Below are positions 9,615 through 38,412 of a DNA stretch of 38,850 nt, piece after piece (the stretch's first letter is position 1; each line of letters starts with the position of its first letter). The DNA lies in IMG/VR virus record IMGVR_UViG_3300036783_000169, positions 1 through 38,850 of that record, one strand, 5' to 3'. Below the pieces are notes generated by a model. It was given only the letters and a program-made list of their open reading frames with translations. It did not search any database and had not been told where the DNA came from. The stretch comes from a virus. Lineage: Duplodnaviria; Caudoviricetes. The translations under genes and the position numbers were made by a program.

Positions 9615-9638
9615 ATACGAAAGGAGTACGATACTCAC

Positions 9639-9863: not shown

Positions 9864-9870
9864 CCTGGCG

Positions 9871-21227: not shown

Positions 21228-22241
21228 GTGTATGAGACCAGGGCCGCCATGACCAGCGCGTCGATCAACGACTTGCCGGACAGCGCGTTCGCGTACATCG
21301 AGAGCGGCGGGAAGAAGGACTCGTCGGGGAAGACGATCCCGCGGTCGCTGCGGCATTTCCCGGTCCACGACGAGGCCCACGCGAGGAACGCCCTGGCGCG
21401 GGCACCGCAGTCCCCGTTCGGTAAGGCGGCGATGCCGAAGATTCTCGCGGCGGCCCGGAAGTTCGGGATCAAGGTCTCCGGGCAGGACCGGGCGTTCGCG
21501 GGGATGGAACCGGACACGTCGGGGTGGCCGGAGCGCCGGTTCACGAAGTTCCCGCTGGAGATGCGCACCGAAGGGCAGGACGGGCCCGCTCACATCTGGG
21601 GGTACGCGGCGTGTTTCGACCGGCTGTCGAAGCGGCTCGGCGGGTTCGTGGAGCAGGTCAACCGGTCCGCGTTCAACGAGAGCAAGCAGGACGGGTGGCC
21701 CGACGTCGTCTGCCGCTACAACCACAAGGACGACTACCTGCTGGGGACGACGTACGCGCGGACGCTGGAGCTCGGGATCGACCCGACCGGGCTGATGTAT
21801 GACGTGCGCCCACCCCAGTCGAGGTCGGACATCCTGGAGTACGTGCAGCGCGGAGACATCCGCCACTCCTCGTTCGCGTTCCGGACGTTCCCCGGCGGCG
21901 ACGAATGGGGCGTGTCGGAACACAACTATCCGATGCGCACGCTGCTGTCGGTCGAGCTCGTCGACGTGGCCCCGGTTCTCGACCCCGCGTACCCGGACGC
22001 GACGGCGGGGGCGCGTGCGATGGACGGTGCCATCCGGTCGCTGTCGATGTGGGTGCAGGCCGAGCCCGATGAGGTCCGTGACAAGCTCGCCGAGAACCGT
22101 GCCATGGACTTCTTCAGGAGGACCGACAACATCGGGCCCCGCCAGAAGCAGAAGGTTGAGAAGAAGAACACGCTTACCGGTGCTCTGGCGCTGCTCGACC
22201 TGCTCGACAACTCCCAGGACCCGTATGCAGACCAGGGATAA
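21228..22241 (+). CDS. Prohead protease, HK97 family, with extra N-terminal domain
   Basis: GYAACF, GGFVEQV, YNH, SSFAF, LVDVAPVLDPAY. Confidence 0.92.
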   Translation: MYETRAAMTSASINDLPDSAFAYIESGGKKDSSGKTIPRSLRHFPVHDEAHARNALARAPQSPFGKAAMPKILAAARKFGIKVSGQDRAFAGMEPDTSGWPERRFTKFPLEMRTEGQDGPAHIWGYAACFDRLSKRLGGFVEQVNRSAFNESKQDGWPDVVCRYNHKDDYLLGTTYARTLELGIDPTGLMYDVRPPQSRSDILEYVQRGDIRHSSFAFRTFPGGDEWGVSEHNYPMRTLLSVELVDVAPVLDPAYPDATAGARAMDGAIRSLSMWVQAEPDEVRDKLAENRAMDFFRRTDNIGPRQKQKVEKKNTLTGALALLDLLDNSQDPYADQG

Positions 22242-22279
22242 GCCGTAATTACCCTGGATACCGTTGCTCGCTTGGGCCC
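22240..22279 (-). ncRNA. Stand-alone antisense TIGR-like unit (AGCGAGCA/GGGTAATT)
   Basis: GGCCCA-N8-ACGG-tat-CCA-N8-ACGGCT; TATGAT at 22298-22303. Confidence 0.75.
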
Positions 22280-22597
22280 TCCCCGGCCTGCTACACCATC
22301 ATACCTGTTAGGACAGCCGGGGTGTGTCTTGGTTCATATCCACTTGCACACGGCCCCGCTGAAAGAAGGAGAACGGAGCAGCTCGTCCGTCAACCCGAAG
22401 ATCGCGAACCTTTTCGTGGTCAGCCTCATCGTGCTGCAGTGGGCGCTCGTCGTGTATCTCATCGTCCGGGCGATCGGCGCTGCCGAGAAGCTGTGACGTT
22501 TCACCACAACTGAATACCGAGCCGCGGTAGCCGCATTCTCGTGCGGGAGCCGGCTGATGACCAATCACCAGCTGACTTCAAGAAGGGAAGCAGCACC

Positions 22598-23854
22598 ATG
22601 GCAAGTGAAGTTGCTAAGCGGCTCCGCGACCGGCGTCTCAACGTGTGGAACGAGGCGAAGAAGATCGCGGAGGACGCCGCCGGCGAGAACCGAAGCTTCA
22701 CACCGGAAGAACAAGGCCGGTGGGACGCGATGCAAGAAGAGATGCAGACGCTCGACGTCCGCATCGGCGCGGTTCTTGACACGGAGAAGCGGGCCAAGGA
22801 GGCGGACAACGCGTTCGAGGCGCTGCAGGACCGTCCGCGTGAGAAGAGCGGTCAGGCGGGTCCCGGCGGGGTCCAGCTCGAGGAGATCCGCAAGTGGGCA
22901 CGCGGCGATCAGGGTGCCCCGCGGGCCATCGAGATCCGCCGCGCCGCGGAGGGGCCGATCAACTACCGGACGCTGACCACGGTCGGTGCCGGGTCGTCGT
23001 CGATTATCCCGACGGACTTCTACGACCAGCTGATCGCGCATCTCATCGAGGTCTCGGGCGTCATGCAGTGCGGTCCTACGGTCCTGAACACCGGTGGCGG
23101 CGAGACGCTGCAGGTCCCGAAGACGACTGCGCACTCGTTCGCGTCGACGACCGGCGCGGCCGCGACGCAGGCGCAGCCGCTTCCCACGTCGGACCCCGCG
23201 TTCTCGATGCAGACGCTGAGCGCGTACAAGTACGGGATTCTTCTCCAGGTAGCACGGGAGCTGATCGACGACACCGCAGTCGACCTGCTCGGGTATCTCG
23301 CGATGCAGGCGGGACGTGCGCTGGGGAACAACTTCGGGAACGACCTCGTGAACGGTTCCGGTGCCGGCGCCCCGTCGGGGATCCTCACCGGTGCCACCGT
23401 GGGTGTCACGGGCGGGACGACCGGTCAGGGCGGGTCGCCGACGTACGCGAACCTGATCGACCTCGAATACTCGGTCATCGCGCCGTACCGCCAGTCCCGG
23501 TCGTGCTACTGGCTCGCGGCGGATAAGACCATCGGCGGGTTCCGGAAGATCGTCGACTCGACCGGGCGACCCGTGTGGGAGCCCTCCGCAGTCCTCGGCT
23601 CACCGGACCTCCTGCTCGGCAAGCCGCTCGTCGCGGACCCGTTCATGCCCGCGGTCGCGGTCAGCGCGCTCACGGTCGCGTTCGGGGACTTCTCGCAGTA
23701 TTTCGTCCGGCTCGTCGGCGGGGTCCGCTTCGAACGCTCGGACGACTTCGCGTTCGGTTCCGACGTCGTGACGTTCAGGGCGATCCTGCGCGGTGACGGG
23801 ACCCTCGTCGACCGCACCGGGGCGATCAAGGTTTACAAGGGCGCAAGCGCCTGA
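22598..23854 (+). CDS. Major capsid protein, HK97 fold
   Basis: Coiled-coil delta domain, LSAYKYG...ELIDD, GDFSQY; AAGGGAAG RBS. Confidence 0.95.
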   Translation: MASEVAKRLRDRRLNVWNEAKKIAEDAAGENRSFTPEEQGRWDAMQEEMQTLDVRIGAVLDTEKRAKEADNAFEALQDRPREKSGQAGPGGVQLEEIRKWARGDQGAPRAIEIRRAAEGPINYRTLTTVGAGSSSIIPTDFYDQLIAHLIEVSGVMQCGPTVLNTGGGETLQVPKTTAHSFASTTGAAATQAQPLPTSDPAFSMQTLSAYKYGILLQVARELIDDTAVDLLGYLAMQAGRALGNNFGNDLVNGSGAGAPSGILTGATVGVTGGTTGQGGSPTYANLIDLEYSVIAPYRQSRSCYWLAADKTIGGFRKIVDSTGRPVWEPSAVLGSPDLLLGKPLVADPFMPAVAVSALTVAFGDFSQYFVRLVGGVRFERSDDFAFGSDVVTFRAILRGDGTLVDRTGAIKVYKGASA

Positions 23855-23860
23855 GTAACT

Positions 23861-23898
23861 GCCCGGGCCGCCCGCCACCACCGCCGGGCGGCCCGGGC
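23861..23898 (+). terminator. Hairpin after capsid gene
   Basis: GCCCGGGCCGCCC/GGGCGGCCCGGGC. Confidence 0.65.
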
Positions 23899-23942
23899 TA
23901 TCGTGGGACGTGTATTCACCCGCAGACGGGAAGGTAAGAACA

Positions 23943-24479
23943 ATGGCAGTCACCCCAGGGCAGCGTCCCGAAAGCGGGACTCTGAACAGCACGGCCAGCG
24001 GCTCGTCGGGCACGGCATCCGGCGGTGACCCGACCAACCAGCCGGGGCAGTACCCGCCCGGGTCGTTCTTCGGGATCACCGTCCCGTCCGGTACGGGCGC
24101 GCCGGGGACGGCCGGGGTGAACCCGATGACGGCGGATGACCCGACGATCTCACCGGGGCAGAACACGCCGACGCTCGGCGGGGAATCCCCGTCCTCGGTG
24201 GTGCAGACCGGAGCCCCGGGCAGCCAGGGTGCCCCGCCTGACGGCGGACCCGAGACCGGTAACACGGTCCGTTACACGCGGCCTGGTTCGTGGCTGACCG
24301 GAACATACCAGCAGGACACGGTGCGGCAGGAGCAGAGCGGTACGGGTGACGACACCCAGGCGAATGATGTGGGGTACGGCACGTCCGGTCCGCAGCTTCC
24401 CGCGCTGAAGGGGAACCAGCCGACGTCAACCGGTGCCGGGCAGGGCCGGGTCATGCGCGGCGGGCGGAGCGTGAGGTAA
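23943..24479 (+). CDS. G/P/T/S-rich low-complexity protein
   Basis: RBS; coupled to 24479. Confidence 0.7.
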   Translation: MAVTPGQRPESGTLNSTASGSSGTASGGDPTNQPGQYPPGSFFGITVPSGTGAPGTAGVNPMTADDPTISPGQNTPTLGGESPSSVVQTGAPGSQGAPPDGGPETGNTVRYTRPGSWLTGTYQQDTVRQEQSGTGDDTQANDVGYGTSGPQLPALKGNQPTSTGAGQGRVMRGGRSVR

Positions 24480-24754
24480 TGCAGGACCTCACCGCGCAGG
24501 TTTTCCCGGACGGGCCGGTCGAAGCGATGTGCCCGACTAGCCAGGCCGGCGGTAACAGGTTCTCTAAGCGGGACGCGGCGTTGTCCGCGCCGGGCAGTGA
24601 CAGCACTGCTGCTGCGGTGATGCAGGCTGCGCAACCGGGGCCGTTCACGTCGGTGACCACCAACCCGGCGAACATGTCGCAGGTGACGGACAAGTCCGGC
24701 AAGAAGTTACATGGATCAGCGTCCGCAGGAAGTCATCACGGGATCGGGCCGTAA
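24479..24754 (+). CDS. Hypothetical protein
   Basis: TAATG overlap. Confidence 0.65.
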   Translation: MQDLTAQVFPDGPVEAMCPTSQAGGNRFSKRDAALSAPGSDSTAAAVMQAAQPGPFTSVTTNPANMSQVTDKSGKKLHGSASAGSHHGIGP

Positions 24755-24873
24755 GGGTGAGCCGAAGGCTCTTAGCTCATCGTTGCAGCACACGTTCTCC
24801 TGCGCTCATTTCTCTATCGGGAACGTGATCTGGGCTTCCTGCGCGATCTGCGGGCCGCTCGAACCGGTGCCTG

Positions 24874-25089
24874 ATGGCCAGCGCTGACCCCGCCAGGCTG
24901 GCCGCTTTCGTGGCGGGCCTGCCCGACGGTCACCGTCACGCCGGGTTCTTCTGGGCGGTCATGACCGCTGAGGCGAACCACCTGGACCCGGCTGATGTGG
25001 CGATGATCGCGGATGCGGGGGTCACGAACGGCCTCGACGAGGACTACGTGCACCGGACCGTGACCGAGGCTCGGAAGAAGACACGGTGA
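24874..25089 (+). CDS. Hypothetical protein
   Basis: GTGA overlap with the GT gene. Confidence 0.55.
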   Translation: MASADPARLAAFVAGLPDGHRHAGFFWAVMTAEANHLDPADVAMIADAGVTNGLDEDYVHRTVTEARKKTR

Positions 25090-26096
25090 AGCTTTTCTCC
25101 GGTCATGATGCCGGCGGGTGCGGCTGGTACCGGATGATCCTCCCGCACCGGCAGCTCGCGGAGCACGGCTGGGACGTCACGTGGGCGAACGCGAGCCTTG
25201 AGACCGGGGCGGGGTTCACCAGCGCGGCCACCCGCGGGAATGATGTTATCGCGGCGCAGCGGGTAGACAAACCCGGGTCGGCGCATGTGTGGCGCGACTG
25301 CCGCACCGCCACGTCCCGGTTGGTCCTCGAGCAGGACGACAACGTGTTCTCCATCGGGATGCACAACTGGTCGGCCTACGAGATCTATTCGAGAGAACGG
25401 GTCCGTGACATGGTGATGCACGCCATGGAGGTCGCGGACATGGTGACGACGACGACCCCGGCCCTCGCGGAGGTTCTCAGCGAGTTCAACCAGAACGTGA
25501 GGGTGCTGCCGAACTGCATCCCAGGCTGGGTGTGCGGCCTGTCACCCCGGGAGCATGACCGGCCGCGGGTCGGGTGGATGGGCGGCGCGTCCCACGGTCT
25601 CGACGTCGGGGTGGTCGCGGAGCCGGTGCGACGGTTCCTGAAACGGCACCCTGCCTGGCAGCTGTCCCTGATCGGGACCGATTACCGCCCGACGTTCGAG
25701 CTGCCTGAGCGCCGCGCCGTGTTCACCAAATGGGTACAGGTCAATGATGACGCTGACGGTTACTACCGGCTGCCCGATTTTGATGTGGGGCTGGCCCCGC
25801 TGACCCCGGACGTGTTCAACCAGTCCAAGTCCCCGTTGAAGGCCCTCGAGTACGGGGCGCTGGGAATCCCCGTCATCGCGTCGGACTGGCCACCCTACCG
25901 GGATTACGTCCGTCACGGTGAGACAGGGTTTCTCGTCAAGCGTGACCATGAGTGGCTGCATTACATGAGTCTCCTCGCGAACGATGAGGCGCTGCGGGAG
26001 AAGATGGGCGCTGCGGCGCGGGAGCAGGCCCGGCAGCACACGATCGAGGGAAACTGGCAGGCGTGGGACGAGGCGTACCGTTCCCTGTTTCAGTAG
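25086..26096 (+). CDS. GT-B glycosyltransferase (GT4-like)
   Basis: GCGWYR, EQDDN, KSPLKALEYGALGIPVIASD. Confidence 0.92.
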   Translation: MKLFSGHDAGGCGWYRMILPHRQLAEHGWDVTWANASLETGAGFTSAATRGNDVIAAQRVDKPGSAHVWRDCRTATSRLVLEQDDNVFSIGMHNWSAYEIYSRERVRDMVMHAMEVADMVTTTTPALAEVLSEFNQNVRVLPNCIPGWVCGLSPREHDRPRVGWMGGASHGLDVGVVAEPVRRFLKRHPAWQLSLIGTDYRPTFELPERRAVFTKWVQVNDDADGYYRLPDFDVGLAPLTPDVFNQSKSPLKALEYGALGIPVIASDWPPYRDYVRHGETGFLVKRDHEWLHYMSLLANDEALREKMGAAAREQARQHTIEGNWQAWDEAYRSLFQ

Positions 26097-26105
26097 CATG
26101 GGGTC

Positions 26106-26795
26106 GTGCACCTGGTCGTGGTCGTGCCGAGCCGGGGGCGTCCTGCCAGCGCCCGCCGTCTCGCTGGTGCTTTCCGGGACACCGCGGATTTTGACAGGAC
26201 GGACCTGCTGTTCGCCGTGGACGATGACGACCCGGAGCTGGCGGCGTACCAGGAGCTGGCCGATGAGGACCCGTGGGCCGGGCTGACGGTCCTCCCACAC
26301 CCCCGCAGGATCGGGCCCATCCTGAACGCGGTGGCTGTCAGCCTGGCCCCTTTCTGTAATTACCTGGGTTTCATGGGCGATGATCACCTGCCCAGCACGG
26401 ACGGGTGGGACCGGGCGCTGACCGGTGAGCTGGACGGGACGCTCGGGGTGGCGTACGGGAATGACCTGCACCAGGGGGCGAGGCTCCCGACCGCGATGGT
26501 GGTGTCGTCGGTGCTGATCCGGAAGCTGGGGTACTTCTGCCCGCCTGGCCTGACCCACCTGTACCTGGATAATTTCTGGGCGCTGCTCGGGTCGGTGACC
26601 CGGCTGGCGTACCGGGATGACGTGATCATCGAGCACCTGCACGTGGCGGCGGGGAAGGCCCCGATGGACGCCGGGTACGAGTTCAGCCTGGACCCGGGGC
26701 TGGACATGCAGGACAGGGTCGCGTACGACACGTTCCTTCGCGGGCGGTGGGAGGATGACCGGCGGATGATCGCAGAGATGATGACCGGTGCGTAA
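26106..26795 (+). CDS. GT-A glycosyltransferase (GT2-like)
   Basis: VVPSRGR, AVDDDD, MGDDH, IIEHLH. Confidence 0.88.
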   Translation: MHLVVVVPSRGRPASARRLAGAFRDTADFDRTDLLFAVDDDDPELAAYQELADEDPWAGLTVLPHPRRIGPILNAVAVSLAPFCNYLGFMGDDHLPSTDGWDRALTGELDGTLGVAYGNDLHQGARLPTAMVVSSVLIRKLGYFCPPGLTHLYLDNFWALLGSVTRLAYRDDVIIEHLHVAAGKAPMDAGYEFSLDPGLDMQDRVAYDTFLRGRWEDDRRMIAEMMTGA

Positions 26796-27390
26796 GCAGC
26801 TCCGCCCGTTTTACGACCAGCGGGACCTGGACCGGATCTACGCGACGTCGTATGACCACACGCGGTGGTCCGATCACGTGCAGCGGGTCGCCTATACCGC
26901 GCAAATTTTGCACCGCATGGCACCGTCCAGTGTCGCTGACCTGTCGTGCGGTGACGCGGCGATCGTGAACCAGGCCGGGCTCGCATGCCCCGTGCACTGC
27001 GGTGACCTGACCGGGGACTACGAGTTCAAGGGGCCGATCGAGGAGACAGTCGGCCTGATCCCGTATGTGGACGTTTTCGTATGTTCCGAGACGCTGGAGC
27101 ACCTGCGGGACCCGGACCTGGTCCTGAAGCTGATCCGGGTGAAGGCGGACCGGCTGCTGCTGTCCACCCCGGTCGGCGAGTGTGACGACACGAACCGCGA
27201 GCATCTCTGGGGCTGGGACACCGTTGACATGCGGGCTATGCTCACCCAGGCCGGGTGGACGGGTCAGGTTGACCTGCTCTGCCCGCCCCCCGCCTACTAC
27301 GTTTTCCAAGTCTGGCAGTGCGCTTTATGCCCAGCGCGCTGGTCACTGGCAGCGCCGGGTTCATCGGCCGGCACTTCACCCGCCGCCTGA
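26788..27390 (+). CDS. SAM-dependent methyltransferase
   Basis: VADLSCGD, CSETLEHLRDP. Confidence 0.8.
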   Translation: MRKQLRPFYDQRDLDRIYATSYDHTRWSDHVQRVAYTAQILHRMAPSSVADLSCGDAAIVNQAGLACPVHCGDLTGDYEFKGPIEETVGLIPYVDVFVCSETLEHLRDPDLVLKLIRVKADRLLLSTPVGECDDTNREHLWGWDTVDMRAMLTQAGWTGQVDLLCPPPAYYVFQVWQCALCPARWSLAAPGSSAGTSPAA

Positions 27391-28202
27391 TCCGGAACGG
27401 CTGGGACGTGTCTTGTGTTGATGTCAAGACAGGCCGGGACGCGCGGGAGTTCTTCACGTTCCCCCCTTCGGGCTACGACCTGGTGGTGCATGCCGCGGCT
27501 GTGGTCGGCGGCCGGGAGACCATCGACAACAATCCGCTCGCCCAGGCGGTCAACCTGGAACTTGACGCCGGGCTGTTCACCTGGGCGCGGCGGGCCAGGC
27601 CGGGGCGGATCGTGTACCTGTCCAGCTCGTCGGTGTACCCGGTCGCGTTGCAGGGCAGCGAAACCAAGTGCCGGCTCCACGAGCAGGACGTGAACTGGGC
27701 ATCGACGCAGGGACCCGACGCGCTGTACGGGTGGACCAAGCTGACCGGCGAGTACCTGGCCCGGCTCGCCCTCGCCGACGGGCAGGCCGTCACCATCGTC
27801 CGCCCGTTCTCCGGTTACGGACCCGACCAGGACGACACGTACCCGTTCCCCGCGTTCATCGACCGGGCGCTCGCCCGGGCTGACCCGTTCGCGATCTGGG
27901 GCAGCGGCGAGCAGGTCCGGGATTTCATTCACGTGGACGACATCGTGACGGCCACGCTGATGATGGTGGAACAGGAGATCAGCGGCCCCCTGAACCTCGC
28001 ATCGGGGCAGCCCGTGTCGATGCGCGAGCTCGCGGGGATGGTCTGCGAGCAGGCCGGGTATGAGCCCCGGTTCGAGTGCGTCCCGACCGCTCCGTCCGGT
28101 GTTGAGTGGCGGGTCGCGGACGTGCTGAAGGCCAGCCAGGTGTGGGTTCCGCGGGTTCGGCTGGCGCAGGGTATCCGCGAGGCGCTGAAATACCGTAAGT
28201 GA
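27327..28202 (+). CDS. NAD-dependent epimerase/dehydratase
   Basis: TGSAGFIG, SSSSVY, YGWTK, RDFIHVDD. Confidence 0.95.
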   Translation: MPSALVTGSAGFIGRHFTRRLIRNGWDVSCVDVKTGRDAREFFTFPPSGYDLVVHAAAVVGGRETIDNNPLAQAVNLELDAGLFTWARRARPGRIVYLSSSSVYPVALQGSETKCRLHEQDVNWASTQGPDALYGWTKLTGEYLARLALADGQAVTIVRPFSGYGPDQDDTYPFPAFIDRALARADPFAIWGSGEQVRDFIHVDDIVTATLMMVEQEISGPLNLASGQPVSMRELAGMVCEQAGYEPRFECVPTAPSGVEWRVADVLKASQVWVPRVRLAQGIREALKYRK

Positions 28203-28203
28203 C

Positions 28204-28866
28204 ATGAAAGCGTTCATCATCTTCCGGGACAGGGTGTCGTACGGGCGCAGGTGCGCGGACGCGATGCGCCGGGCGGGTCTCGATCCCGTGATTGTGGATC
28301 ACGGGTCGACGTGGCCTGCGGCGCTGGCGTGGCTAACCGGGCTGGAGCAGTGGGGCATCGAAGTGCTCTACAGAGGCGGGGGGCATCCCAGGCATCTGTG
28401 GGAGTGGACGCCGTTCCTTGAGTCGCGTGGCAGCGACCGGTACGTGGTGACCGACCCGGACGTGATCCCGTCACCGAAGTGCCCGCTGGACTGGCCGCAG
28501 CGGCTCTCCGGGCTGCTGGATGAGTACCCGGGCAGCGCGAAAGCCGGGCTGGGCCTCCGGATTGACAACCTGCCGGAGCATTACTCCCGCCGCCAGCAGG
28601 TCATCGAATGGGAAAAGCATTTCTGGGATGACGAGCTGGAACCGGGCGTGTTCCGCGCACCGCTGGACACGACCCTTGCCCTATACCGGGAACGGTCACG
28701 GTTCGAGCTGGACGGGCTGCGGACCGGGAACCCGTACGTGGCGGATCACCTCGCCTGGCATGAAGATTTCAGCGCACTACCGGCTGAGACCGCGTACTAC
28801 TATCAGAATGCAGAACGCGGAATCTCACATTGGGCGGTGCGTGGTGTCAGTGCCTGGGGCGACTAG
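28204..28866 (+). CDS. GT-A glycosyltransferase
   Basis: IVDHGST; VVTDPD (DxD). Confidence 0.8.
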   Translation: MKAFIIFRDRVSYGRRCADAMRRAGLDPVIVDHGSTWPAALAWLTGLEQWGIEVLYRGGGHPRHLWEWTPFLESRGSDRYVVTDPDVIPSPKCPLDWPQRLSGLLDEYPGSAKAGLGLRIDNLPEHYSRRQQVIEWEKHFWDDELEPGVFRAPLDTTLALYRERSRFELDGLRTGNPYVADHLAWHEDFSALPAETAYYYQNAERGISHWAVRGVSAWGD

Positions 28867-28870
28867 GAAA

Positions 28871-29744: not shown

Positions 29745-29745
29745 G

Positions 29746-30108
29746 ATGGCCACGGTGCAGATGCTGGTGACGATCAGCGGCAGTCATGCGAGCGGGAACC
29801 CGTGGCCGCCCGCCGGGGGCACCATCGAGCTGGACGACTGGGAATCCGATCACCTGATCCTGGGTGAGATGGCCCGCCCGGTGGGTGACGTGCCCCCACC
29901 GGAGCCTGAGCCTGAGCCTGAGACACCCGAACCCGTCTCGGAGGGGGAGGAGCCTGCCCCGTCCGGTGAGGTGCCCACGTCCGCACCGAAGGGCATTCAG
30001 CCGAAGGCCGATTGGGTCGCGTGGGCGATGGTGAACGGGCTGACCGAAGACGAGGCGAACCAGCTCACCAAGGCGGAGCTGATGGAGCAGTTCGGGGCGC
30101 GGGCATGA
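29746..30108 (+). CDS. Head-associated protein with C-terminal HeH-like motif
   Basis: GGAGG RBS; KADWVAWA...LTKAELM; PE linker. Confidence 0.75.
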   Translation: MATVQMLVTISGSHASGNPWPPAGGTIELDDWESDHLILGEMARPVGDVPPPEPEPEPETPEPVSEGEEPAPSGEVPTSAPKGIQPKADWVAWAMVNGLTEDEANQLTKAELMEQFGARA

Positions 30109-30172
30109 TGGGCGACAGGTTGCCCGTGACGGAGACCCGCGGCGGCGAAACACCGGGTGAGTGGGTGGTCGC

Positions 30173-30234
30173 CCCCGCCCCGGCCGTGCAGACTGTGAGC
30201 GATGAGGCCGCTTGGGCTGTGGGCCAAGACGGGG
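30173..30234 (-). ncRNA. Stand-alone antisense TIGR-like unit (CAGCCCAA/CAGTCTGC)
   Basis: 13-bp stem with three G.U pairs that form only on the minus strand; TATCAT at 30244-30249; lies within short ORF 30105-30272. Confidence 0.85.
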
Positions 30235-30268
30235 ACGGACACGATGATACCTCAGAGGGTGCGTCTGA

Positions 30269-30811
30269 GTGAACGGCGCGGTAACTGCCCGGGTCCGTGA
30301 CCTGCTCACCACGGTCCGGCAGCAGGAACGGCTATGGCAGAAAAAAGTGACGCTGCCTGACGACCGGTACACCCCGTGGATGCCATCGGATATAGCCCAG
30401 TTCATCGTGCTGCTGGTCGAGGCGATGGCTGAGGCGTCCGGGGACAGGTTTCTCGAGGTGGGCTGCGGGCCGGGCACGAAGATGCTGCTGGCCCGGGACT
30501 TGTTCGGGCTGGACGTGCACGGGTTCGACCGGGTCCCGGAGTACGTGGACGCGGCGAACGGGCTGGGCCTTGACGCGTTCCTCCAGGACGCCCTGACCTA
30601 CAGGGATTACGGAAAGTTCGACATCGTGTTTCTGAACCGGCCGTGCCGGGACCCGGTCTTGGAGCGGGAGCTGGAACGGACCGTGTGGACGCGGATGCGC
30701 CGCGGCGCGGTCCTGCTCCTCATGAATACCGAGATGAAGCCGCCGGAAACTCGCTGGCTCGTTGTCACCGACGACTGGGAATCAAAGCGAGCAATTTTTC
30801 TTAAGTTGTAG
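30269..30811 (+). CDS. Class I SAM methyltransferase
   Basis: FLEVGCGPG, FDIVFLNRP. Confidence 0.85.
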   Translation: MNGAVTARVRDLLTTVRQQERLWQKKVTLPDDRYTPWMPSDIAQFIVLLVEAMAEASGDRFLEVGCGPGTKMLLARDLFGLDVHGFDRVPEYVDAANGLGLDAFLQDALTYRDYGKFDIVFLNRPCRDPVLERELERTVWTRMRRGAVLLLMNTEMKPPETRWLVVTDDWESKRAIFLKL

Positions 30812-30812
30812 C

Positions 30813-30874
30813 TCCCGTCCTGGCCGTTTCATTTCTGAGTCACAGGACCGTCCACCAGATGAGCCAGGACGGGA
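30813..30874 (-). ncRNA. Stand-alone antisense TIGR-like unit (TCTGGTGG/GAAATGAA)
   Basis: 13-bp stem TCCCGTCCTGGCT/GGCCAGGACGGGA; TATCAT at 30884-30889. Confidence 0.85.
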
Positions 30875-30909
30875 ACATACGCCATGATACCACAAGAGGG
30901 AGAACCGGG

Positions 30910-31560
30910 ATGAGTGAGCTGGCGACCGGGGCGGACAGGATGAGCATCAGGACAGCGACCGGTCCCTCCGACCGGGGCGGGCACAGCACCCAGTTCGCGG
31001 TCCGGAAGTGGGACCTGGACCAGATCGCGTGGACGGTGTCCCGTGACTATGACGGGCGGCGGATGCTCAAGCGGGGGCAGGAGCCGGATCAGCACACGTT
31101 CGCGGAATACAAGTGCCTCCCGTACGAGCTGTACGAACTGGAAGACTGCAACCTGATCCTCGACGCGGGCTGGCAGATGATGATGAACGGCATCGCCGGG
31201 TCAGCGGTCACGAAGTTCGCGAACGGCGCGGTCGGCCGGATCGGCGGTGGCATATCAGCCACGGCCGCGGCGTACACGCAGACCGACCTGCAGGCCGCGA
31301 CCGGCGCGGCGAACCGTCAGTGGGAGCTCATCAACGCGGTCCCGTCGGTCGGCGCGACCCACACCGCTGGCCTGGTGTTCGCCGCGCAGTTCCCCACCAC
31401 GGACGGGAACTTCGCGTGGGCCGAGTTCGGGTTCGACTCCGGCACCGCCGCAGGCACGACAGCGTCGGTCGCGCCGATGCTGCAGCGGGGCACCGCATCA
31501 CCGGGGACGAAAACCTCGGCGCAGACCTGGAACGCGACTGTCACCATCACCTGGACATAG
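30910..31560 (+). CDS. Putative virion structural protein
   Basis: GAGGGAG RBS; beta-rich; GNFAWAEFG, GTKTSAQTW. Confidence 0.75.
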   Translation: MSELATGADRMSIRTATGPSDRGGHSTQFAVRKWDLDQIAWTVSRDYDGRRMLKRGQEPDQHTFAEYKCLPYELYELEDCNLILDAGWQMMMNGIAGSAVTKFANGAVGRIGGGISATAAAYTQTDLQAATGAANRQWELINAVPSVGATHTAGLVFAAQFPTTDGNFAWAEFGFDSGTAAGTTASVAPMLQRGTASPGTKTSAQTWNATVTITWT

Positions 31561-31579
31561 CCCGGGAGGGTGAGGCTCC

Positions 31580-31706
31580 GTGACCTTTGCGGCAGTCGGC
31601 GGCCTCGGACAGGCAACCGCCACAACCACTCCGCGTTCTCCGGCCTGGCCGGCACGAAAGCCGTCTCGCAGACCTGGACGCAACGGTGACATTTCCGTTC
31701 ACGTAG
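31580..31706 (+). pseudogene. Remnant: truncated gene start plus frameshifted alternative 3' end of 30910-31560
   Basis: GTKAVSQTW-fs-ATVTFPFT* parallels GTKTSAQTWNATVTITWT*. Confidence 0.6.
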
Positions 31707-31766
31707 TTTCACTTCCGTAACATCCGTTGGAGGCTGTGACCGCGGCCCGGGAGGGGGTGAGCCCGG

Positions 31767-33179
31767 GTGGCCTACTCGCTACTGCACGCGGGCACGGTCC
31801 TGTCTGTCGGGGGCATCAACAGCATCGCCCCGTCCTGCACGTCCACCACGGCCGGCAGCATGCTGGTATGCCCCGTCTGGGCGCAGGGCTCCGTCACGTT
31901 CTCCCTGCCGGCCGGCTGGCGTGCCGCGGCGCCCCCCACCGGGTCCGGTTGCCGCGCGCAGGTCTGGTACTACCCGAACTGCCCCGCCGGGATCACCTCG
32001 GTCACGGTCAACACCAGCGCCTCCACCACCATAGTGGGGCAGGTCCTGGAGTTCACTGACCCGTCCGGGTCGAACCTGGTGCCGCTGGACGCGCAGGGCA
32101 CCCAGTTCGCCACTTCGCCGGCCACCCCGCAGGCCGTGGCGACCAGCACCGCCGCCATCGCGGGCGACCTGGTGGTCTGCGCCAGCGGCCTGGTGTTCGC
32201 GTCGGCCACCAGCAGCACCCTGACGCCCGGCGCCGGATTCACCTCGGCCGGGAATTACGGCAACGGCGCCACCCAGAACGGGCACGCCAGCTTCGACTAC
32301 CTGCTGAACTCGGGCGCGGGCGCGCAGACCGACTCGGTGGCGTTTACGGGCGCCAGCCCGTCCAGCTTCGCCGGGTGCATCGCCGCGTTCCGCATCGCCT
32401 CGGCTGGCCCTGGCCCCGTCCTTTTCGATTCGGTTGGCCCGTCTGCCAGCGGCTACACCGGCGTTTCCACCACCACGTCCCCGGCGACCTGGAGCCACAC
32501 TCTCACCAGCGGCGATACGGGGCTCCTGGTCGCGTTCGGGATCGACAACACGCCCGACTCCGGGTTCACGATCACCGGGGTTACCGCCGGCGGCGTGGCG
32601 ATGACCCAGGTCGGCGGCAAGGTTGAGTCCGGTACCGGCGGGGGCGGGTTCATCACGGTGTGGCAGCTGCTGAACCCGCCGACCGGAACCATCACCATCA
32701 GCGTGTCGTGGACCGGTATCGCGTTCACCAACGGCGGCCACCCGAACGGCGGGTCGATCGCGTTCACCGGAGCGGGCGCGTTCAGCGCACCGGTCACCGC
32801 CAACGGCAGCAGCACCATCCCGTCCGTGGCGGTCCCGACAGCCAGCACGTCTGGGATGGCCGCAGCGTTCGCTGTCTGCGGCTCGGCTTTCATCTCGGCT
32901 ACAGCCCCGCTGACTTCTAGATATCTCGGCGGGGCTGGCGGCCAGGGCGCTGGCTGGATGGCGGGCGGAACCGCTCCTGGAACCGGCAGCAGCGTCACGG
33001 CTGCCTGGTCGTCCAACTCCGACTGGTGGGCGGTCATCGGCGTCGAGGTTCAGCCCGCTGCCGCCGGAGGTCCTGTTTCAAGGCCGCAGCGGGTGCGCAG
33101 GAACGTGCAGGGCAACCCGGGCGCGATCCCGTCGCAGCACATCACGACCGAGCTCACGGGAGCCATTTACGGCCGTTAG
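31767..33179 (+). CDS. Putative virion surface protein, two beta-sandwich modules
   Basis: S/T/G/A-rich, 470 aa; GGAGG RBS. Confidence 0.75.
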   Translation: MAYSLLHAGTVLSVGGINSIAPSCTSTTAGSMLVCPVWAQGSVTFSLPAGWRAAAPPTGSGCRAQVWYYPNCPAGITSVTVNTSASTTIVGQVLEFTDPSGSNLVPLDAQGTQFATSPATPQAVATSTAAIAGDLVVCASGLVFASATSSTLTPGAGFTSAGNYGNGATQNGHASFDYLLNSGAGAQTDSVAFTGASPSSFAGCIAAFRIASAGPGPVLFDSVGPSASGYTGVSTTTSPATWSHTLTSGDTGLLVAFGIDNTPDSGFTITGVTAGGVAMTQVGGKVESGTGGGGFITVWQLLNPPTGTITISVSWTGIAFTNGGHPNGGSIAFTGAGAFSAPVTANGSSTIPSVAVPTASTSGMAAAFAVCGSAFISATAPLTSRYLGGAGGQGAGWMAGGTAPGTGSSVTAAWSSNSDWWAVIGVEVQPAAAGGPVSRPQRVRRNVQGNPGAIPSQHITTELTGAIYGR

Positions 33180-33187
33180 GGAGACAC

Positions 33188-33697
33188 GTGTCTAATTCGT
33201 ATATGGCGAGCCCGCGGGCGTCGACCACGCCGTTCCTCCCGGTGGCGACCGCTCTGGTTGCCGCGACCATCAAGACGGTCCTCCAGGTGGCCACCCCGAC
33301 GACCACTGATGTTGCCATCATCGGGTGGGGCTTGTCGTTCGATAACGCCGCCGGCGGTACCCAGGTACCGGGAATATGTTCCATACTCCATGACCCGACC
33401 GCGTGCACGGGCGGCACGGCGTACACGCCGGAACCGTGGGGGAACTCCCAGGCCCCGGCATCGCTCTGCGTCGGGGGCGCGGCGCTGACGGCCTACGCGC
33501 TGACCGAAGTGACGCCGACCGCCCCGGTTTACCTTGACACTCAGGAGGTCAGCCCGCAGTCCGGGTACGGCGTATTCTTCCCGGCCGACACCCGGCCGAG
33601 GGTCCAGCCGTCCCGGTTCGTCCGGGTACGGTGCACGTTCCCGGCCGCCGTCAACGTCATCCCGTGGATTCTCTGGGACGAACCCGCGCAGGGGTAA
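33188..33697 (+). CDS. Putative structural protein
   Basis: GGGAG RBS; beta-rich. Confidence 0.7.
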   Translation: MSNSYMASPRASTTPFLPVATALVAATIKTVLQVATPTTTDVAIIGWGLSFDNAAGGTQVPGICSILHDPTACTGGTAYTPEPWGNSQAPASLCVGGAALTAYALTEVTPTAPVYLDTQEVSPQSGYGVFFPADTRPRVQPSRFVRVRCTFPAAVNVIPWILWDEPAQG

Positions 33698-33700
33698 CCT

Positions 33701-36700
33701 ATGCCGCGCAGGGCAGCAGCGAACAGGCACCCGCCGGTCACCTACCCGCTGGGGTCGGCTGCGCTGCCGAAGATCGCGACGCTGACTGACACGTTCCCCG
33801 GGACCACCCTGAACGCGCAGTGGACCAGCTTCGGCACGGTCACGGTCGGTTCGGGACTGCTGACCCTGACCGATGTTGCCAGCTCCGCTGTCTACTCCGG
33901 TATCCAGTCCGCCGCCGCCTACGACCTGACCGCCTCGGCGATCTCCGTGCAGCTGGTCTCAGCGGGCACCCAGCTGAGCACGACCCAGGCGATTCTGCAG
34001 GCGCAGCTCGACTCGACGCACACGGTGTCGGTGTTCGCCGGCAACGGCACCCTGACCGCGCAGCATAACATCGGCGGGACGGTCTCGACGGTCGGCAGCC
34101 CGGCCACGTACAACCCGGCGACGATGGTGTGGCTGCGGCTGCGGGAGGCTGCCGGGACCCTGTTCTACGAGTATTCCGCTGACGGGATGACGTGGACGGC
34201 GCTGACGTCGGAGACGGACCCGTTCGCGCTGACCGCCGTGACCGCTGTCATCGAGCACGGCCAGTACGGCGGTTCGGACCCCCAGTCCTCGTCGCAGTGG
34301 GATAACGTCAGCAGCCCCGTGCTCACGCTGGCTGACAGCGGGGTGAGCGCTGAGACGCTGACGGTCGCCGTGTCGGCTGCTGCCCCGCTGGCAGACGCGG
34401 GCGTCTCGGCGGAGACGCTCACGGTCGCTGCTGCCGTCCCGTCCGCCGACACGGGTGCCGCAGCTGACACCCTGACGGTCACGTCGCTGGTCCCGCTGGC
34501 CGAGACGGGCACCTCGGCGCAGACGCTCGCGGTCACCGCCGCGGTCCCGGCAGCGGATGCGGGGACCAGCGCGGAAACCCTGGCTGTCTCCCAGGTGACC
34601 GCGGTGTCCCTGGCTGAGGCGGGGACCGGGACGGACACGGCGGGCGTGCTGCCCGTCCTGCCCGACGCTGGCACCGGGACAGACAGCCTGACCCTCGGCC
34701 CGGTCCTGGTAACGCTGGCTGACACCGGGTCGGGTGCGGACACGCTGACCCTGACCTCCCCGGTTCCCCTGGCTGACGCGGGGGCGGGGACGGACGCGGT
34801 CACGGCGACCGCGCAGACCACCCTGGCCGACGCCGGGGCTGGCGCGGACACGATCACGGCCCTCGCAGTCGTCCCGGTCGCGCTGACCGACAGCGGGCAG
34901 GGGACGGAAACGCTGGCTGTCCTCGCGGTCATCGCGGTCCCGCTGGCTGACACGGGCACCGGTTCGGACAGCCTGGGTGTCACGTCGCTGGTCCCGCTGG
35001 CCGACGCGGGCACCGGCGCGGACGTACTGACGGTTACGTCCCTGGTCCCGCAGGCTGACGCGGGGTCGGGCAGTGACACGCTGACGACCCTCGCGGTTGT
35101 CCCCGTTGCGCTGGCCGACGCGGGGACGGGCACGTCCCAGGCCCCGGTCTTCACCGCCGCAACGTCCCTGGCTGACGCTGGCAGCGGGACGGATGCTGTC
35201 ACATCGGTCACGGCCACTGTCCTGGCTGACAGCGGGTCCGGCACCGACGCGTTCTCCAACGGCGCGTTCACGTCCGTCCCGCTGACCGACACGGGGACGG
35301 CCGCGGACACGCTGGCCGTCACATCGGTCACCGCTGTCCCGCTGCCCGACGCGGGGACCGGCACGGACACGCTGGCACTGGCTTCCGGGGTGCCGCTGGC
35401 TGATACCGGGGCCGGGACAGACACGGCCGGGGTCATCCCGGGCCTGGCTGACACCGGTACTGGTGCGGACCTGCTGGCCATCCCCGGTTTCGCCGGCACC
35501 GGCACCGCGGCTGACACGTTCACCGCCGCGCAGCCCACCGGGCTGGCTGACACGGGCACGGGCAGTGACACGCTGGCCGTCCCCGCGTTCGCCGACGCGG
35601 GGACCAGCGCGGACAGCATCAGGCTGACGCAGCCCACCGCGCTGGCCGACACGGGAACCGGAACTGACACGCTGGCCGTCCCAGCGTTCGCTGACACCGG
35701 GTCCAGCTTCGAGATCTTCAACAACGGGTCGGGGCAGACTGTCCCGTTCACGGAGACAGGCCAGGCGTCTGACGGGCTTGCCGTCCCCGCGTTCGCTGAC
35801 ACGGGCACCGGCAGTGACACGCTGGGCATGCAGGAGACTGTCGCGTCCGCGCTGGCTGATACCGGGACCAGCGCGGACGCGGTCACCGTCACCGCCCTGG
35901 TGCCGCTGGCGGAGACCGGGACCGGCGCGGATCTTGCCGCAGCCGCCGTCCCGGCCGCCCTGACTGACACGGGCAGCGCGGCGGACGCTTTCACGGCAGC
36001 GCAGCCGGTCACCCTGGCGGACACCGGGGCCGGCACCGAAACGTTCGCCGGGGGGGCTTCGGCACCGACCGCGTTCACCGACACGGGGGCGTCCGCTGAG
36101 ACGGCCAGCCTGGTGCAGCCTGCCCCGCTGGGCGAGACCGGGCAGGGCACCGACGCGTTCTGGCCCGGTACCGTCCTGGCTGAGGGCGGCAGCGGCACGG
36201 ACAGCCTGGGCACCTCCCAGGTCGCGTCCGTCCCGCTGGCCGACGGCGGGGCCGCTGCCGACACCCTCGCAGCGGTCCCGGGCCTGACCGACGCGGGGAC
36301 CAGCTCGGAGACGTTCGCCGTCGCGGTCGTGTTCGCGTTCACCGACACCGGGCACAGCGCCGAGGCCCTGTTCGTCCCGGCGTTCAGCGACGGCGGGTCC
36401 GCCACTGACACGCTTCTCATCCCCGCGTACTCTGACACCGGGTCCGGGGCGGACGCGTTCGGGACACCGGTCAAGGCGCAGCAGCTCCCCGACACGGGCA
36501 CCGGCACGACCAGCCTGTCGATCGCGCTGCTGTTCCAGTTCACCGACGGGGGCAGCTCGACCGAGTCGATCCACACGGTCAACATCGTCCCGGCGAAATC
36601 ATCCAGCGCGGTGAACCACGTCATGTACTCCCCGGCGCGGGTGTCAGACCCGCGGGATAGCATCACCATGACGAGCAGCCGGGTGGCAGCCGCGGCCACG

Positions 36701-36769
36701 GCCGCCGACCCGCGGGACGGTTTCTCCGCCGTCACCAAACCGGGGACATCCACGCCGTCCGTGAAATAG
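33701..36769 (+). CDS. 1022-aa fibre-like protein with tandem LADxGxGxDxL repeats
   Basis: Lectin-like N-terminal region followed by dozens of ~15-21-aa repeats. Confidence 0.85.
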   Translation: MPRRAAANRHPPVTYPLGSAALPKIATLTDTFPGTTLNAQWTSFGTVTVGSGLLTLTDVASSAVYSGIQSAAAYDLTASAISVQLVSAGTQLSTTQAILQAQLDSTHTVSVFAGNGTLTAQHNIGGTVSTVGSPATYNPATMVWLRLREAAGTLFYEYSADGMTWTALTSETDPFALTAVTAVIEHGQYGGSDPQSSSQWDNVSSPVLTLADSGVSAETLTVAVSAAAPLADAGVSAETLTVAAAVPSADTGAAADTLTVTSLVPLAETGTSAQTLAVTAAVPAADAGTSAETLAVSQVTAVSLAEAGTGTDTAGVLPVLPDAGTGTDSLTLGPVLVTLADTGSGADTLTLTSPVPLADAGAGTDAVTATAQTTLADAGAGADTITALAVVPVALTDSGQGTETLAVLAVIAVPLADTGTGSDSLGVTSLVPLADAGTGADVLTVTSLVPQADAGSGSDTLTTLAVVPVALADAGTGTSQAPVFTAATSLADAGSGTDAVTSVTATVLADSGSGTDAFSNGAFTSVPLTDTGTAADTLAVTSVTAVPLPDAGTGTDTLALASGVPLADTGAGTDTAGVIPGLADTGTGADLLAIPGFAGTGTAADTFTAAQPTGLADTGTGSDTLAVPAFADAGTSADSIRLTQPTALADTGTGTDTLAVPAFADTGSSFEIFNNGSGQTVPFTETGQASDGLAVPAFADTGTGSDTLGMQETVASALADTGTSADAVTVTALVPLAETGTGADLAAAAVPAALTDTGSAADAFTAAQPVTLADTGAGTETFAGGASAPTAFTDTGASAETASLVQPAPLGETGQGTDAFWPGTVLAEGGSGTDSLGTSQVASVPLADGGAAADTLAAVPGLTDAGTSSETFAVAVVFAFTDTGHSAEALFVPAFSDGGSATDTLLIPAYSDTGSGADAFGTPVKAQQLPDTGTGTTSLSIALLFQFTDGGSSTESIHTVNIVPAKSSSAVNHVMYSPARVSDPRDSITMTSSRVAAAATAADPRDGFSAVTKPGTSTPSVK

Positions 36770-36772
36770 GAG

Positions 36773-37717
36773 GTGCCCGTGGGGTCGACGGTTTTCTACG
36801 ACAGCATCAACGAGGTCGCGACGCTCACCATCATCTTCTCCGTGTCCGGCACCCCGACCGACCCGTCGACCGTGTCGTGCGTGATCACCGACCCGGCCGG
36901 CCTGCAGACCGTCCACACGTACGCCGGGGCCCCGCCGAACGACATCACGAAGCAGGGGACCGGCGGGTACCAGCTGCTGGTCCTGTGCAACCCGTCCGAA
37001 ACCGGCATCGACGGCCTGTGGTCTTATACGTGGATCGGGACCGGGGCCGCGTCGGATGTGCAGCCCGGGACGTGGCGGGTGACACCGCTGGCCCACGCGA
37101 CCTGGTATGTCGGCCCGGAGGAGCTGAAAGACCGCCTCGACATTGACGATTCGGCTGACGACTCGGGGATTGTCGACGTGTGCAACGCGACGTCCCGGTG
37201 GATCGACGAGTTCTGCGGGCGGCATTTCTTCCGGATGACCGACACGCGCACCTACCAGCCGCTGGACATCTGGCTGCTCACCATCGACGACCTCGTGTCC
37301 GTCACGTCCCTGAAAATCGACCTGGACGGCGACGGGGTGTTCGAGACCACGTGGACGCAGGGTGCTGATTACATGCTGCGGATCGGGGACGGGCAGTTCA
37401 GCAAGATGCGGTACGGCGAACCCCGCCCCTACACCCAAGTGCAGGTCCTCCGCGGCGGGGGGACATGGTTCCCGTTTACCTGGCCATTCACGCACCTTGA
37501 CCGCGTTCAGATCACGGGGATGTTCGGGTGGCCGCAGGTACCCCCTGCCGTTCATCAGGCCGCGCTGCTGATCGCCTCCGACTGGTTTAAGTTGAAGGAC
37601 GCGCCGTGGGGAGTCGCGGGGATGGGCGAGCTCGGCGTCATCCGCACCAACCCCAACCCGTGGGTCGCTGACCAGCTCCGCCCTTATATCAGGGGGCTCG
37701 GCAAGGTCGGGGTTTAG
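36773..37717 (+). CDS. Head-to-tail adaptor with N-terminal extension
   Basis: EELKDRL...IDEFCGRHF...FGWPQVPPAVHQAAL. Confidence 0.8.
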   Translation: MPVGSTVFYDSINEVATLTIIFSVSGTPTDPSTVSCVITDPAGLQTVHTYAGAPPNDITKQGTGGYQLLVLCNPSETGIDGLWSYTWIGTGAASDVQPGTWRVTPLAHATWYVGPEELKDRLDIDDSADDSGIVDVCNATSRWIDEFCGRHFFRMTDTRTYQPLDIWLLTIDDLVSVTSLKIDLDGDGVFETTWTQGADYMLRIGDGQFSKMRYGEPRPYTQVQVLRGGGTWFPFTWPFTHLDRVQITGMFGWPQVPPAVHQAALLIASDWFKLKDAPWGVAGMGELGVIRTNPNPWVADQLRPYIRGLGKVGV

Positions 37718-37719
37718 CC

Positions 37720-38412
37720 GTGGCGAAGCACCCGGCGCACAAGCGGACCAAGGCGCAAGCCGCCGCGGCGGTGAAGTTCGCCGCTGCCGGACGCGCATCG
37801 CAGGCTAAGAAGCGGGCGGCGGAGAAGGCGAAGGGCCTGCCGACCAGGACAGCGAAGCAGACGCAATCGACCGCGAAATTCGCCGCTGCCGGACGGGCCG
37901 CTCAGGCTAGGAAGCGGGCCGGGCTGAAACCGCTGCCGAAAGCTACCCGGGCACTGGCAGGCGACCAGGCCGTCAGACGCATGGGCCGTGAAGCCGTTTC
38001 GCGGTTGGGCCCGGTCGCCTGCCTACCGGTTAACCCTTACATGATACTGGCTGAGACGAATTGGACGCAAGGCTGCTGTGCGGCTACGGCCATCGCCTAC
38101 CACCTGTACGCCCATACTGGCATCATGGCGTCCCAAGGGGATGTGCGTGAGTTGCACGATGCCGTTGCCGACCCCAGCGGCGCGCGCATCCCCGAACTAC
38201 TCGAAGCAGCCTGCGACGGGTTCGCCGGGGTCCGGCTGGCCCGGTTCTGGCCGCTGGACACGCCGCTGCCCGGCAGCATCGCGGGCCTGACCGTGCCGGC
38301 AGGGTCGCACGCCGTCCTGCTCCTGTCCGGGGCGGCGTGCGTCTCCTGGGGCCGCGTCCGCCCCTGCGCGGCCGCCGAGGAGGCGTGGTGGGCGGAATGG
38401 GAATGCCAGTGA
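37720..38412 (+). CDS. Protein with basic N-terminus and papain-like C-terminal motifs
   Basis: KFAAAGRA twice; QGCCAATA, SHAVLL, VSWG. Confidence 0.6.
   Translation: MAKHPAHKRTKAQAAAAVKFAAAGRASQAKKRAAEKAKGLPTRTAKQTQSTAKFAAAGRAAQARKRAGLKPLPKATRALAGDQAVRRMGREAVSRLGPVACLPVNPYMILAETNWTQGCCAATAIAYHLYAHTGIMASQGDVRELHDAVADPSGARIPELLEAACDGFAGVRLARFWPLDTPLPGSIAGLTVPAGSHAVLLLSGAACVSWGRVRPCAAAEEAWWAEWECQ
37956..38023 (-). ncRNA. Antisense intragenic TIGR-like unit (ACCGCGAA/TGCGTCTG)
   Basis: 16-bp stem with one G.U on the minus strand; TATCAT at 38041-38046. Confidence 0.88.

Follow-up and report, generated by a model that had tools for sequence, protein, structure and literature searches.

Solo guide RNA units among the virion genes of a tailed phage encoding a nuclease-less TasA, and silently different sites in the genes beside them

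The phage stretch, its TasA protein and its guide units

IMG/VR record IMGVR_UViG_3300036783_000169 (Duplodnaviria; Caudoviricetes), analysed here in its entirety and called the window (38,850 bp, 67% G+C), is a fragment of a tailed phage that encodes a TasA protein and, both beside the tas gene and far from it, stem-closed guide units (tigRNAs). The virion genes recognised encode the terminase, portal, prohead protease, capsid, head-tail connector and adaptor. Relatives with capsids 76-82% identical have genomes of 100-210 kb, and G+C and gene content point to an actinobacterium as host.

The tasA open reading frame (ORF) has 68 homologues. Its AlphaFold2 model has a predicted local distance difference test score of 90.9, and the first ten Foldseek ranks are all TasH/TasR. 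Residues 31-307 align with the Nop core of 9MTY (residues 110-295; Z 15.8, root-mean-square deviation 2.2 A over 182 residues), a score above that for IS110 (11.8). These residues fill the Nop core and thus leave no space for a nuclease domain: some 25 low-confidence residues precede the aligned part, with no N-terminal RuvC/HNH. As in other TIGR-Tas systems, the protein combines a coiled coil with a Nop domain. Sequence searches gave no phmmer match in the PDB (a profile search reached only 9MTY, E 0.059), no tblastn match in GenBank phages, and no Tas relative found in GTDB genomes. We found no conserved partner nuclease beside tas, and the window ORFs that were scanned included neither a fibrillarin nor an L7Ae gene. 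ORF 6737 was considered as a Tas partner and set aside; its homologues adjoin tas in three lineages only and its fold is uninformative.

The guide units follow the layout GC-YCA-N9-CG-loop-YCA-N9-CG-GC, with two spacers within the 8-12 nt range of stem-loop TIGR-Tas guides between box C and box D and a closing palindromic stem. The raw dual motif occurs 56 times in the window, overlapping pairings counted, against a mean of 1.2 and a maximum of 5 in 100 dinucleotide shuffles. Independent curation gave 35 units at 17 loci, the same total as a first-pass annotation made from the sequence. Guides of TIGR-Tas systems are expected beside tas, and 20 units at 6928-10050 lie there; four units in the virion region do not (Table 1). 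A weight matrix trained on the tas-proximal arrays only recovered all four, and three shuffles yielded none. Of 148 spacers, 126 have A at position 9, and positions 3 and 6 are enriched in G+C (222/296 against 361/740, p 8e-15; other lineages, p 2e-12). A stop-codon test across all guides gave no support for a fixed codon register (stops in register 0 in 21 of 148 orientations, against 11 and 9 in the others), so the G+C excess may partly reflect a Tas preference. Rfam returned only a transfer RNA (tRNA) at gathering score, with no C/D family match, and the stretch, whose units carry TIGR boxes, holds no CRISPR repeat family matching a host array.

Table 1. Coordinates of guide units, upstream hexamers, tasA and candidate own-allele sites in the window
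Feature	Position	Strand	Details	Method
Unit 1	22228..22291	-	spacer A 22272-22264, B 22254-22246; overlaps protease stop	
-10-like TATGAT of unit 1	22298..22303	-		
Unit 2	30165..30243	-	spacer A 30219-30211, B 30195-30187; between head-tail connector and methyltransferase genes	
-10-like TATCAT of unit 2	30244..30249	-	TTCACT 18 nt upstream	
Unit 3	30806..30883	-	spacer A 30859-30851, B 30835-30827; directly past methyltransferase stop	
-10-like TATCAT of unit 3	30884..30889	-		
Unit 4	37950..38040	-	spacer A 38005-37997, B 37981-37973; antisense in variable linker of ORF 37720-38412	
-10-like TATCAT of unit 4	38041..38046	-	conserved in relative R	
Own-allele site of unit 1	21915..21931	+	prohead protease gene; SEHNYP; 10/16 nt, silent differences; 360 nt away	
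Own-allele site of unit 2	29998..30014	+	head-tail connector gene 29746-30108 (phrog_2322); QPKADW; 13/16, silent; 224 nt away	
Own-allele site of unit 3	30731..30747	+	S-adenosylmethionine (SAM) methyltransferase gene; EMKPPE; 13/16, silent; 131 nt away	
Own-allele site of unit 4	37849..37865	+	ORF 37720-38412; TAKQTQ; 15/16, one silent difference; 159 nt away	
tasA	7556..8479	+	solo Nop-domain effector, 307 residues, no nuclease domain	AlphaFold2, Foldseek, structure alignment
tas-proximal stem-loop arrays	6928..10050	+	20 units: 6928, 7182-7521, 7576 (inside tas), 8497-8722, 9490-9604, 9875-10050	
Three further units	2136..2471	-	2175 guide repeats 9562 guide (one mismatch), different stem	
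Single unit	5726..5763	-	weak 5-bp stem; TATATT/TATTAT upstream; one-residue-off site in gene 4400-4828	
Two units	13258..13349	-		
Single unit	13781..13820	-	TACAAT 17 nt upstream; no silent-variant site found	
Single unit	14629..14664	+	directly after DUF7873 gene; cognate site 14596-14612, VLDWIF, 13/16, silent	
Three units	15066..15243	+	ahead of tRNA region	

Solo units in the late region and in related phages

The four virion-region units stand alone on the minus strand, 14-30 kb from tas and antisense among virion genes, and all four complete units that had been annotated near 22240, 30173, 30813 and 37956 are present. Their box C/D cores (22244-22275, 30185-30222, 30825-30862 and 37971-38008) are closed by stems of 9-18 bp. 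The claim that these stems fix the strand is borne out in so far as the minus strand folds better than the plus strand in every unit (-25.5/-19.6, -42.0/-37.6, -37.4/-33.8 and -50.9/-45.2 kcal/mol for units 1-4), but the minus-strand fold of the 22244 unit, taken alone, falls within its shuffles (z -1.6). Their antisense placement in the virion operon also stands, with one correction: the unit at 37971 is not intergenic and lies in frame inside ORF 37720-38412, which is conserved in tas-less relatives and whose variable linker keeps its frame around the unit.

Each of these four units is preceded by a TATSAT hexamer, 21-32 nt upstream of box C, and these four are the only TATSAT hexamers on either strand of the 21-kb late region (17701-38850). 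The same hexamer stands 7 nt ahead of the ATG of ORFs 6737 and 13876, and is therefore likely to be the -10 box of this phage, as judged from its position. It places predicted starts at about 22291, 30237, 30877 and 38034, where the first-pass annotation had put them; the 9-18 nt spacing given there for the -10 boxes depends on the reference point. A -10-like hexamer lies 10-36 nt upstream of four of the nine solo units in the window and of none of the 26 array units (background 1.5%), with a search pattern that left out unit 4 (hexamer at 32-38 nt) and 5763. No consistent -35 box was found (one sigma-70-like site, 0.9 expected). Two other single units had been annotated with -10 boxes: the one at 13773 is present with TACAAT, and the one at 5723 has a weak stem (5 bp, z -0.4) and only TATATT/TATTAT. 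The solo units are predicted to be transcribed independently and bound by Tas.

One tas-bearing relative, R, is represented by five records with overlaps of at least 99.6% identity that reach 129 kb from its tas; since their samples of origin differ, R is a composite. Its Tas is 70% identical, and it carries 39 units at 19 loci, the farthest about 74 kb from tas. Unit 4 has an orthologue in R, located behind the head-tail adaptor, with promoter and stem kept and different spacers; in the stem, one pair is compensated on both sides, one on one side, and one is broken. A second R unit is inserted in frame behind the promoter that it shares with this orthologue. G001, of an independent lineage (185 kb, Tas 52% identical), carries 17 units in arrays and a single solo unit, 46 kb from tas, and in G002 we saw an array only. 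The distributed repertoire proposed in the first-pass annotation thus extends to relatives. As a test of its link to tas, we looked for units in tas-less relatives, and none occurs in G012 (210 kb, complete), G013 (119 kb, 97%, terminase 70% identical) or G021 (101 kb, complete), the three of 24 tas-negative records examined whole. Within this sample, the outcome that would have counted against the first-pass proposal, units equally frequent in phages lacking tas, did not occur. Among 80 capsid loci, five have units, all from R or a tas-bearing contig.

Two observations on the hexamer may be added. TATCATA reads TATGATA on the opposite strand, giving overlapping divergent -10 boxes at 5466, 6714-6730 and 13863-13869, and one such site in R (G007 12451/12498) has a solo guide leading away from it in each direction.

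Guides that spell the neighbouring gene

In a local search, the best matches close to the units paired 8 nt of either spacer on the two sides of an unpaired base, with silent mismatches. We read each guide accordingly as a 17-bp target made of spacer A positions 1-8, one unpaired base, and the reverse complement of spacer B positions 1-8. Read in this way, each of the four solo guides translates to precisely the six-residue peptide encoded 131-360 nt away in the adjacent gene, with 1-6 silent nucleotide differences (Table 1). Such a match, with zero amino-acid differences, was obtained for 21, 24, 22 and 37 of 20,000 random spacers of the same composition for units 1-4 (0.10-0.19%). At gaps of 0, 2, 3 or 4, none of the four has a zero-difference match. 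Across the window's 10,790 annotated codons, seven matches arise at gap 1, and the four local sites are among them. Among the 74 guides of the window and R, six have such a site no more than 700 nt away at gap 1; gaps 0, 2 and 3 give 0, 0 and 1, and guides moved to other loci gave one match in 197. The gap of 1 and the 700-nt limit were picked after a first look at the data, which costs a factor of perhaps tens and not the result.

Similar cases exist outside the four units. The G001 solo unit (TAGTGT upstream) spells LRDCIY of its adjacent gene with five silent differences, including Leu and Arg codon-family switches, and a unit of L007 spells SRLGIL with a Ser switch. In R, one unit spells VHKEFL of its own tas 3' end and a solo unit, with one terminal mismatch, DWSINF. 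The codon-family switches seen include TCG/AGC, TTG/CTT and CGA/AGG. Mismatches track synonymy and not fixed positions, with Ser, Leu and Arg switches at positions 1, 2 and 4. Over all cases, the guide lies 33-517 nt from its site.

This proximity bears on the picture of dispersed guides, comparable to small nucleolar RNA (snoRNA) genes, that act on the host chromosome or other unrelated targets and whose location says nothing of the target. Most array guides are indeed without a known target and one matches a tRNA T-arm; the local silent-variant matches of the four units, with a joint chance near 1e-11, make this picture highly improbable for them. It may still apply to the other guides. The snoRNA-like picture of the first-pass annotation is to that extent disfavoured.

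A guide is under no constraint to maintain a reading frame; differences from the site that nonetheless obey the genetic code must therefore derive from an allele coding for the same protein. The encoded peptides are those of the window's own lineage and not those of relatives at 70-77% identity, so the target would be a close sibling or a recent ancestor. We therefore favour, as probable and still some way from secure, the reading that the solo guides, likely transcribed by themselves, are predicted to load TasA in trans and to be aimed at the neighbouring gene's allele in sibling phages, with the phage's own allele spared. Each unit would be transcribed alone from its -10-like hexamer, would load the phage's single nuclease-less TasA, and would direct it to the corresponding allele in closely related co-infecting phages. 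The silent differences would shield the phage's own allele, and the effect would most likely be binding without cutting, that is, a block of transcription or replication on the competitor genome. In a recombining phage population, such a guide would be safe only if it travels with its immune allele, and its need to stay linked to that allele would explain the dispersal. Each guide would thus sit 30-520 nt from the site that it polices, and its placement on the non-coding strand, or in a linker whose frame is kept, would leave the late operon undisturbed. The sibling allele and the immunity of the own allele are both postulated here. In three cases the guide agrees better with a relative's allele than with the phage's own (protease, 2 against 6 mismatches; a tail-like gene, 2 against 4; tas 3' end, 1 against 2). 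Own and guide versions both carry rare codons relative to the family consensus, as reciprocal escape predicts.

Rare codons and lineage-specific peptides have also been weighed as signs of relics: guides copied from their own neighbour gene, which then escaped by silent changes and left the units idle. The own sites at the tas 3' end and the DUF7873 end are rich in rare codons (4th and 6th percentile), and the peptides are of the own lineage, both as this explanation would have it. All four units, however, have kept their boxes, stems and -10 hexamers intact, and these features are conserved in R although the spacers change; we regard idle relics as very doubtful. Escape moreover implies siblings with the old allele, so that this explanation merges with sibling targeting. 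Near tas itself, the rare-codon-rich 3' end (window 8400-8470; L175, L176) is resembled, in its variants, by the first guides behind tas in both the window and R, as if tas alleles were targeting each other, to judge from these sequences.

Several results weigh against sibling targeting. Four IMG/VR scans for the predicted targets gave 17, 6, 66 and 36 exact matches, none in a homologous gene, and for units 2, 3, 4 and 14629 the alleles of the relatives examined are all farther from the guide than the phage's own. Contigs of a soil DNA run, possibly the source of the phage, yielded no variant with guide-matched codons at 21915-21931, a scan that informs on presence and not on absence. A zero-difference local site is lacking for 29-30 of the 35 window guides, for 38 of the 39 R guides (including the solo units G007 2968 and G006 16428/16488) and for all five dispersed L004 units; among 118 units of other lineages, near matches number 2 at gap 1 against 1, 0 and 1 at gaps 0, 2 and 3. 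A profile-based test of the 74 guides found no overall excess (6 at gap 1 against 5 at gap 0, best of 26), with a codon filter that also dropped three true sites. The geometry, besides being picked after seeing the data, is unlike the fully paired 18-bp target of the TasR structure: our matches appear only as 8+1+8 and not with all 9 nt of each spacer paired. Searches for 18-bp targets in both orders at gaps 0-2 gave chance-level matches only in the window and 2.6 Mb of loci, with no site at two or fewer mismatches in the window, and 8+gap+8 sites with at most one mismatch in relatives showed no excess over re-paired spacers at any gap. Finally, 18 of 29 mismatches fall at positions 3 and 6 and only one at positions 4-5, which the accessible part of Faure et al. 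(2025, PMC12045711), as we read it, gives as the TasR seed. With so few mismatches in the seed, and a single base separating unit 4 from self, binding of the own allele may persist.

That pattern is what would be expected if the guides regulated the phage itself, with imperfect binding damping its own late-gene transcription in the manner of CRISPR-like regulatory RNAs. Own sites match at 13-15 of 16 nt in three of four units with positions 4-5 kept paired, TasA represses within genes, and no non-self target was found. Yet every mismatch is silent in the target frame, including three-base Ser switches, and a drifting guide need not respect the code; unit 1 is mismatched at 6 of 16 positions, and the sites lie within coding regions, not promoters. 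We judge self-regulation improbable overall, and leave it open for unit 4. When its two halves are taken in the opposite order (reverse complement of spacer B, 4 nt, spacer A; 37858-37878), unit 4 has a perfect 16/16 match, seen once in 74 guides, which we set aside as non-canonical.

An unlikely, though more serious, alternative is RNA-guided intronless homing, in which TasA forms an R-loop on the sibling allele, where forks would stall or a nuclease of phage or host would cut; repair would then copy the immune allele with its linked guide, making the guide a small gene drive. The short guide-to-site distances are in line with it, as is the turnover of guides at fixed positions, including the second R unit in frame behind the same promoter. 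In the terminase-portal gap, where the window has a free-standing HNH endonuclease gene (18830-19594, minus strand), R has an antisense array of at least seven guides (G007 6156-6701), and several relatives show split matches to portal, terminase or capsid. Free-standing homing endonucleases are described, in the available text of PMC13565253, as discriminating through substitutions in the neighbouring gene. Against homing, TasA has no nuclease domain and no conserved partner nuclease was found beside tas.

Sibling targeting can be taken one step further, to a proposal that we put forward tentatively and think rather unlikely: a genome-wide set of tiny RNA-guided gene drives, all served by the one nuclease-less TasA, in which solo guide and recoded neighbour allele form a selfish module that would block the sibling allele during mixed infection and be copied by recombination. 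Repeated rounds would leave both alleles rich in rare codons and fix a 17-bp register with wobble bases at spacer positions 3 and 6 and at the unpaired centre. In Cleave and Rescue synthetic drives, a guide against an essential gene is reportedly linked to a recoded immune copy; the linkage of guide and recoded immune copy is common to both, but those drives are said to be engineered, eukaryotic and based on Cas9 cleavage, and the likeness is one of analogy only.

Known systems and further observations

The units belong to the stem-loop TIGR-TasA family (PlTasA, BlTasA, MbTasA), with which they share a solo Nop-domain Tas, two 9-nt spacers, box C (CCA), box D (CG), a stem, and sub-arrays on either side of tas and inside it. 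The organisation and the targeting rule described here have not been reported for that family. Single units here lie 14-30 kb from tas (up to about 74 kb in relatives), antisense in the late region and with their own -10 hexamer; box C is also TCA, the loops are hairpins, and the inferred target is 17 bp with position 9 unpaired instead of 18 bp, with candidate natural targets. In E. coli, TasA proteins act as DNA-binding repressors of transcription that do not cut (Xu et al., 2026, bioRxiv 10.64898/2026.09.09.750476); that study reports arrays upstream, downstream and inside tas, lists box C variants without TCA, leaves open whether guides have their own promoters and gives natural targets as undetermined. 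In its accessible parts, Faure et al. (2025) describes arrays beside tas, contrasts them with sparsely distributed snoRNAs, and reports that TasR can bias plasmid inheritance. Both main TIGR papers, as far as their available text goes, state natural targets, spacer origin and promoter use as unknown. Dispersed solo units do not appear in the available text and supplement of Faure et al. (2025) or in the main text of Xu et al. (2026), whose supplement could contain such units near tas. The accessible parts of Guan et al. (2026, bioRxiv 10.64898/2026.08.11.744272), PMC13421893 and the Minerva preprint hold nothing on dispersal or targets, and the tigRNA/TasA literature searched contains no report of homing, synonymous targeting, phage competition or a mycobacteriophage counterpart.

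The first-pass view that this organisation is undescribed thus stands for the TIGR papers and not beyond them, as CRISPR mini-arrays offer a precedent. According to the parts available of Medvedeva et al. (2019, PMC6858448) and PMC11656645, virus-borne mini-arrays of SPV1/SPV2 and phages are one- or two-guide units with promoters, keep a fixed position with changing spacers, and have targets near the array in related viruses, the own orthologue being mutated; the cause of this proximity is called unclear there. Turnover in place is seen here in silico, and the own site is silently different, with the best relative alleles at 1-2 mismatches. Unlike mini-arrays, the present units have no CRISPR repeats, carry a split dual-spacer guide, would use a phage-encoded non-cutting TasA and not host Cas, and would discriminate by silent codons. 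Free-standing homing endonucleases such as T4 SegF and SegB likewise sit beside a conserved gene and discriminate kin through its substitutions (PMC13565253, in part); here, specificity would lie in RNA, with one protein for many loci and no nuclease. Box C/D snoRNA genes share dispersed single guides and boxes read by a Nop fold, but Rfam gave no match to them and the predicted target here is double-stranded DNA, on both strands.

If it holds, the pattern would be the first rule for natural targets of this RNA-guided family, and it gives a testable answer: a 17-bp (8+1+8) target in the neighbouring gene's orthologue of related phages, with self set apart by silent codons. Exact 18-bp searches would fail on such targets. 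For the thousands of catalogued arrays, a recipe follows, namely to translate the guide, look next door, and scan whole genomes beyond the tas flanks. Kin competition or homing between phages is suggested as the natural role of a non-cutting TasA.

Other tas lineages were also encountered. A distant Tas with other boxes occurs in G022, and in L022 (9700-11100) a distant Tas (22%) is accompanied by arrays of CCA-N9-AG-like boxes missed by the CG-box scan. In L004 (G036, 2690-19042), a further tas lineage has single units over 16 kb, some with TATAGT/TATACT upstream, and no local silent-variant site. At least 79 records of cluster A1 mycobacteriophages carry a distant tasA, annotated as transposase or hypothetical, and 1-4 stem-loop units (L028-L036; KX574454.1 44502-45212) whose spacers vary among isolates. 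No clear targets of these guides were found at nine 18-kb loci; the phages offer a culturable model on M. smegmatis.

Within the window, the array guide at 8640-8672 (+), taken as 17 bp, reproduces the sequence of a tRNA T-arm, and a tRNA-like gene in G022 agrees with it at 15/16 (L167 15971, minus strand); the window's own two T-loop sites differ from it. A second tRNA-like stretch with a T-loop (15520-15560), not called by ARAGORN or Rfam, lies upstream of tRNA-Lys(CTT) at 15630-15704. One guide is present twice with one mismatch, at 2136-2175 (-) and 9562-9604 (+), 7.4 kb apart, with different stems and loops. Unpaired half-units stand at 7460-7474 and 9490-9504, and the latter, in its own stem, is probably a unit missing its loop and second spacer.

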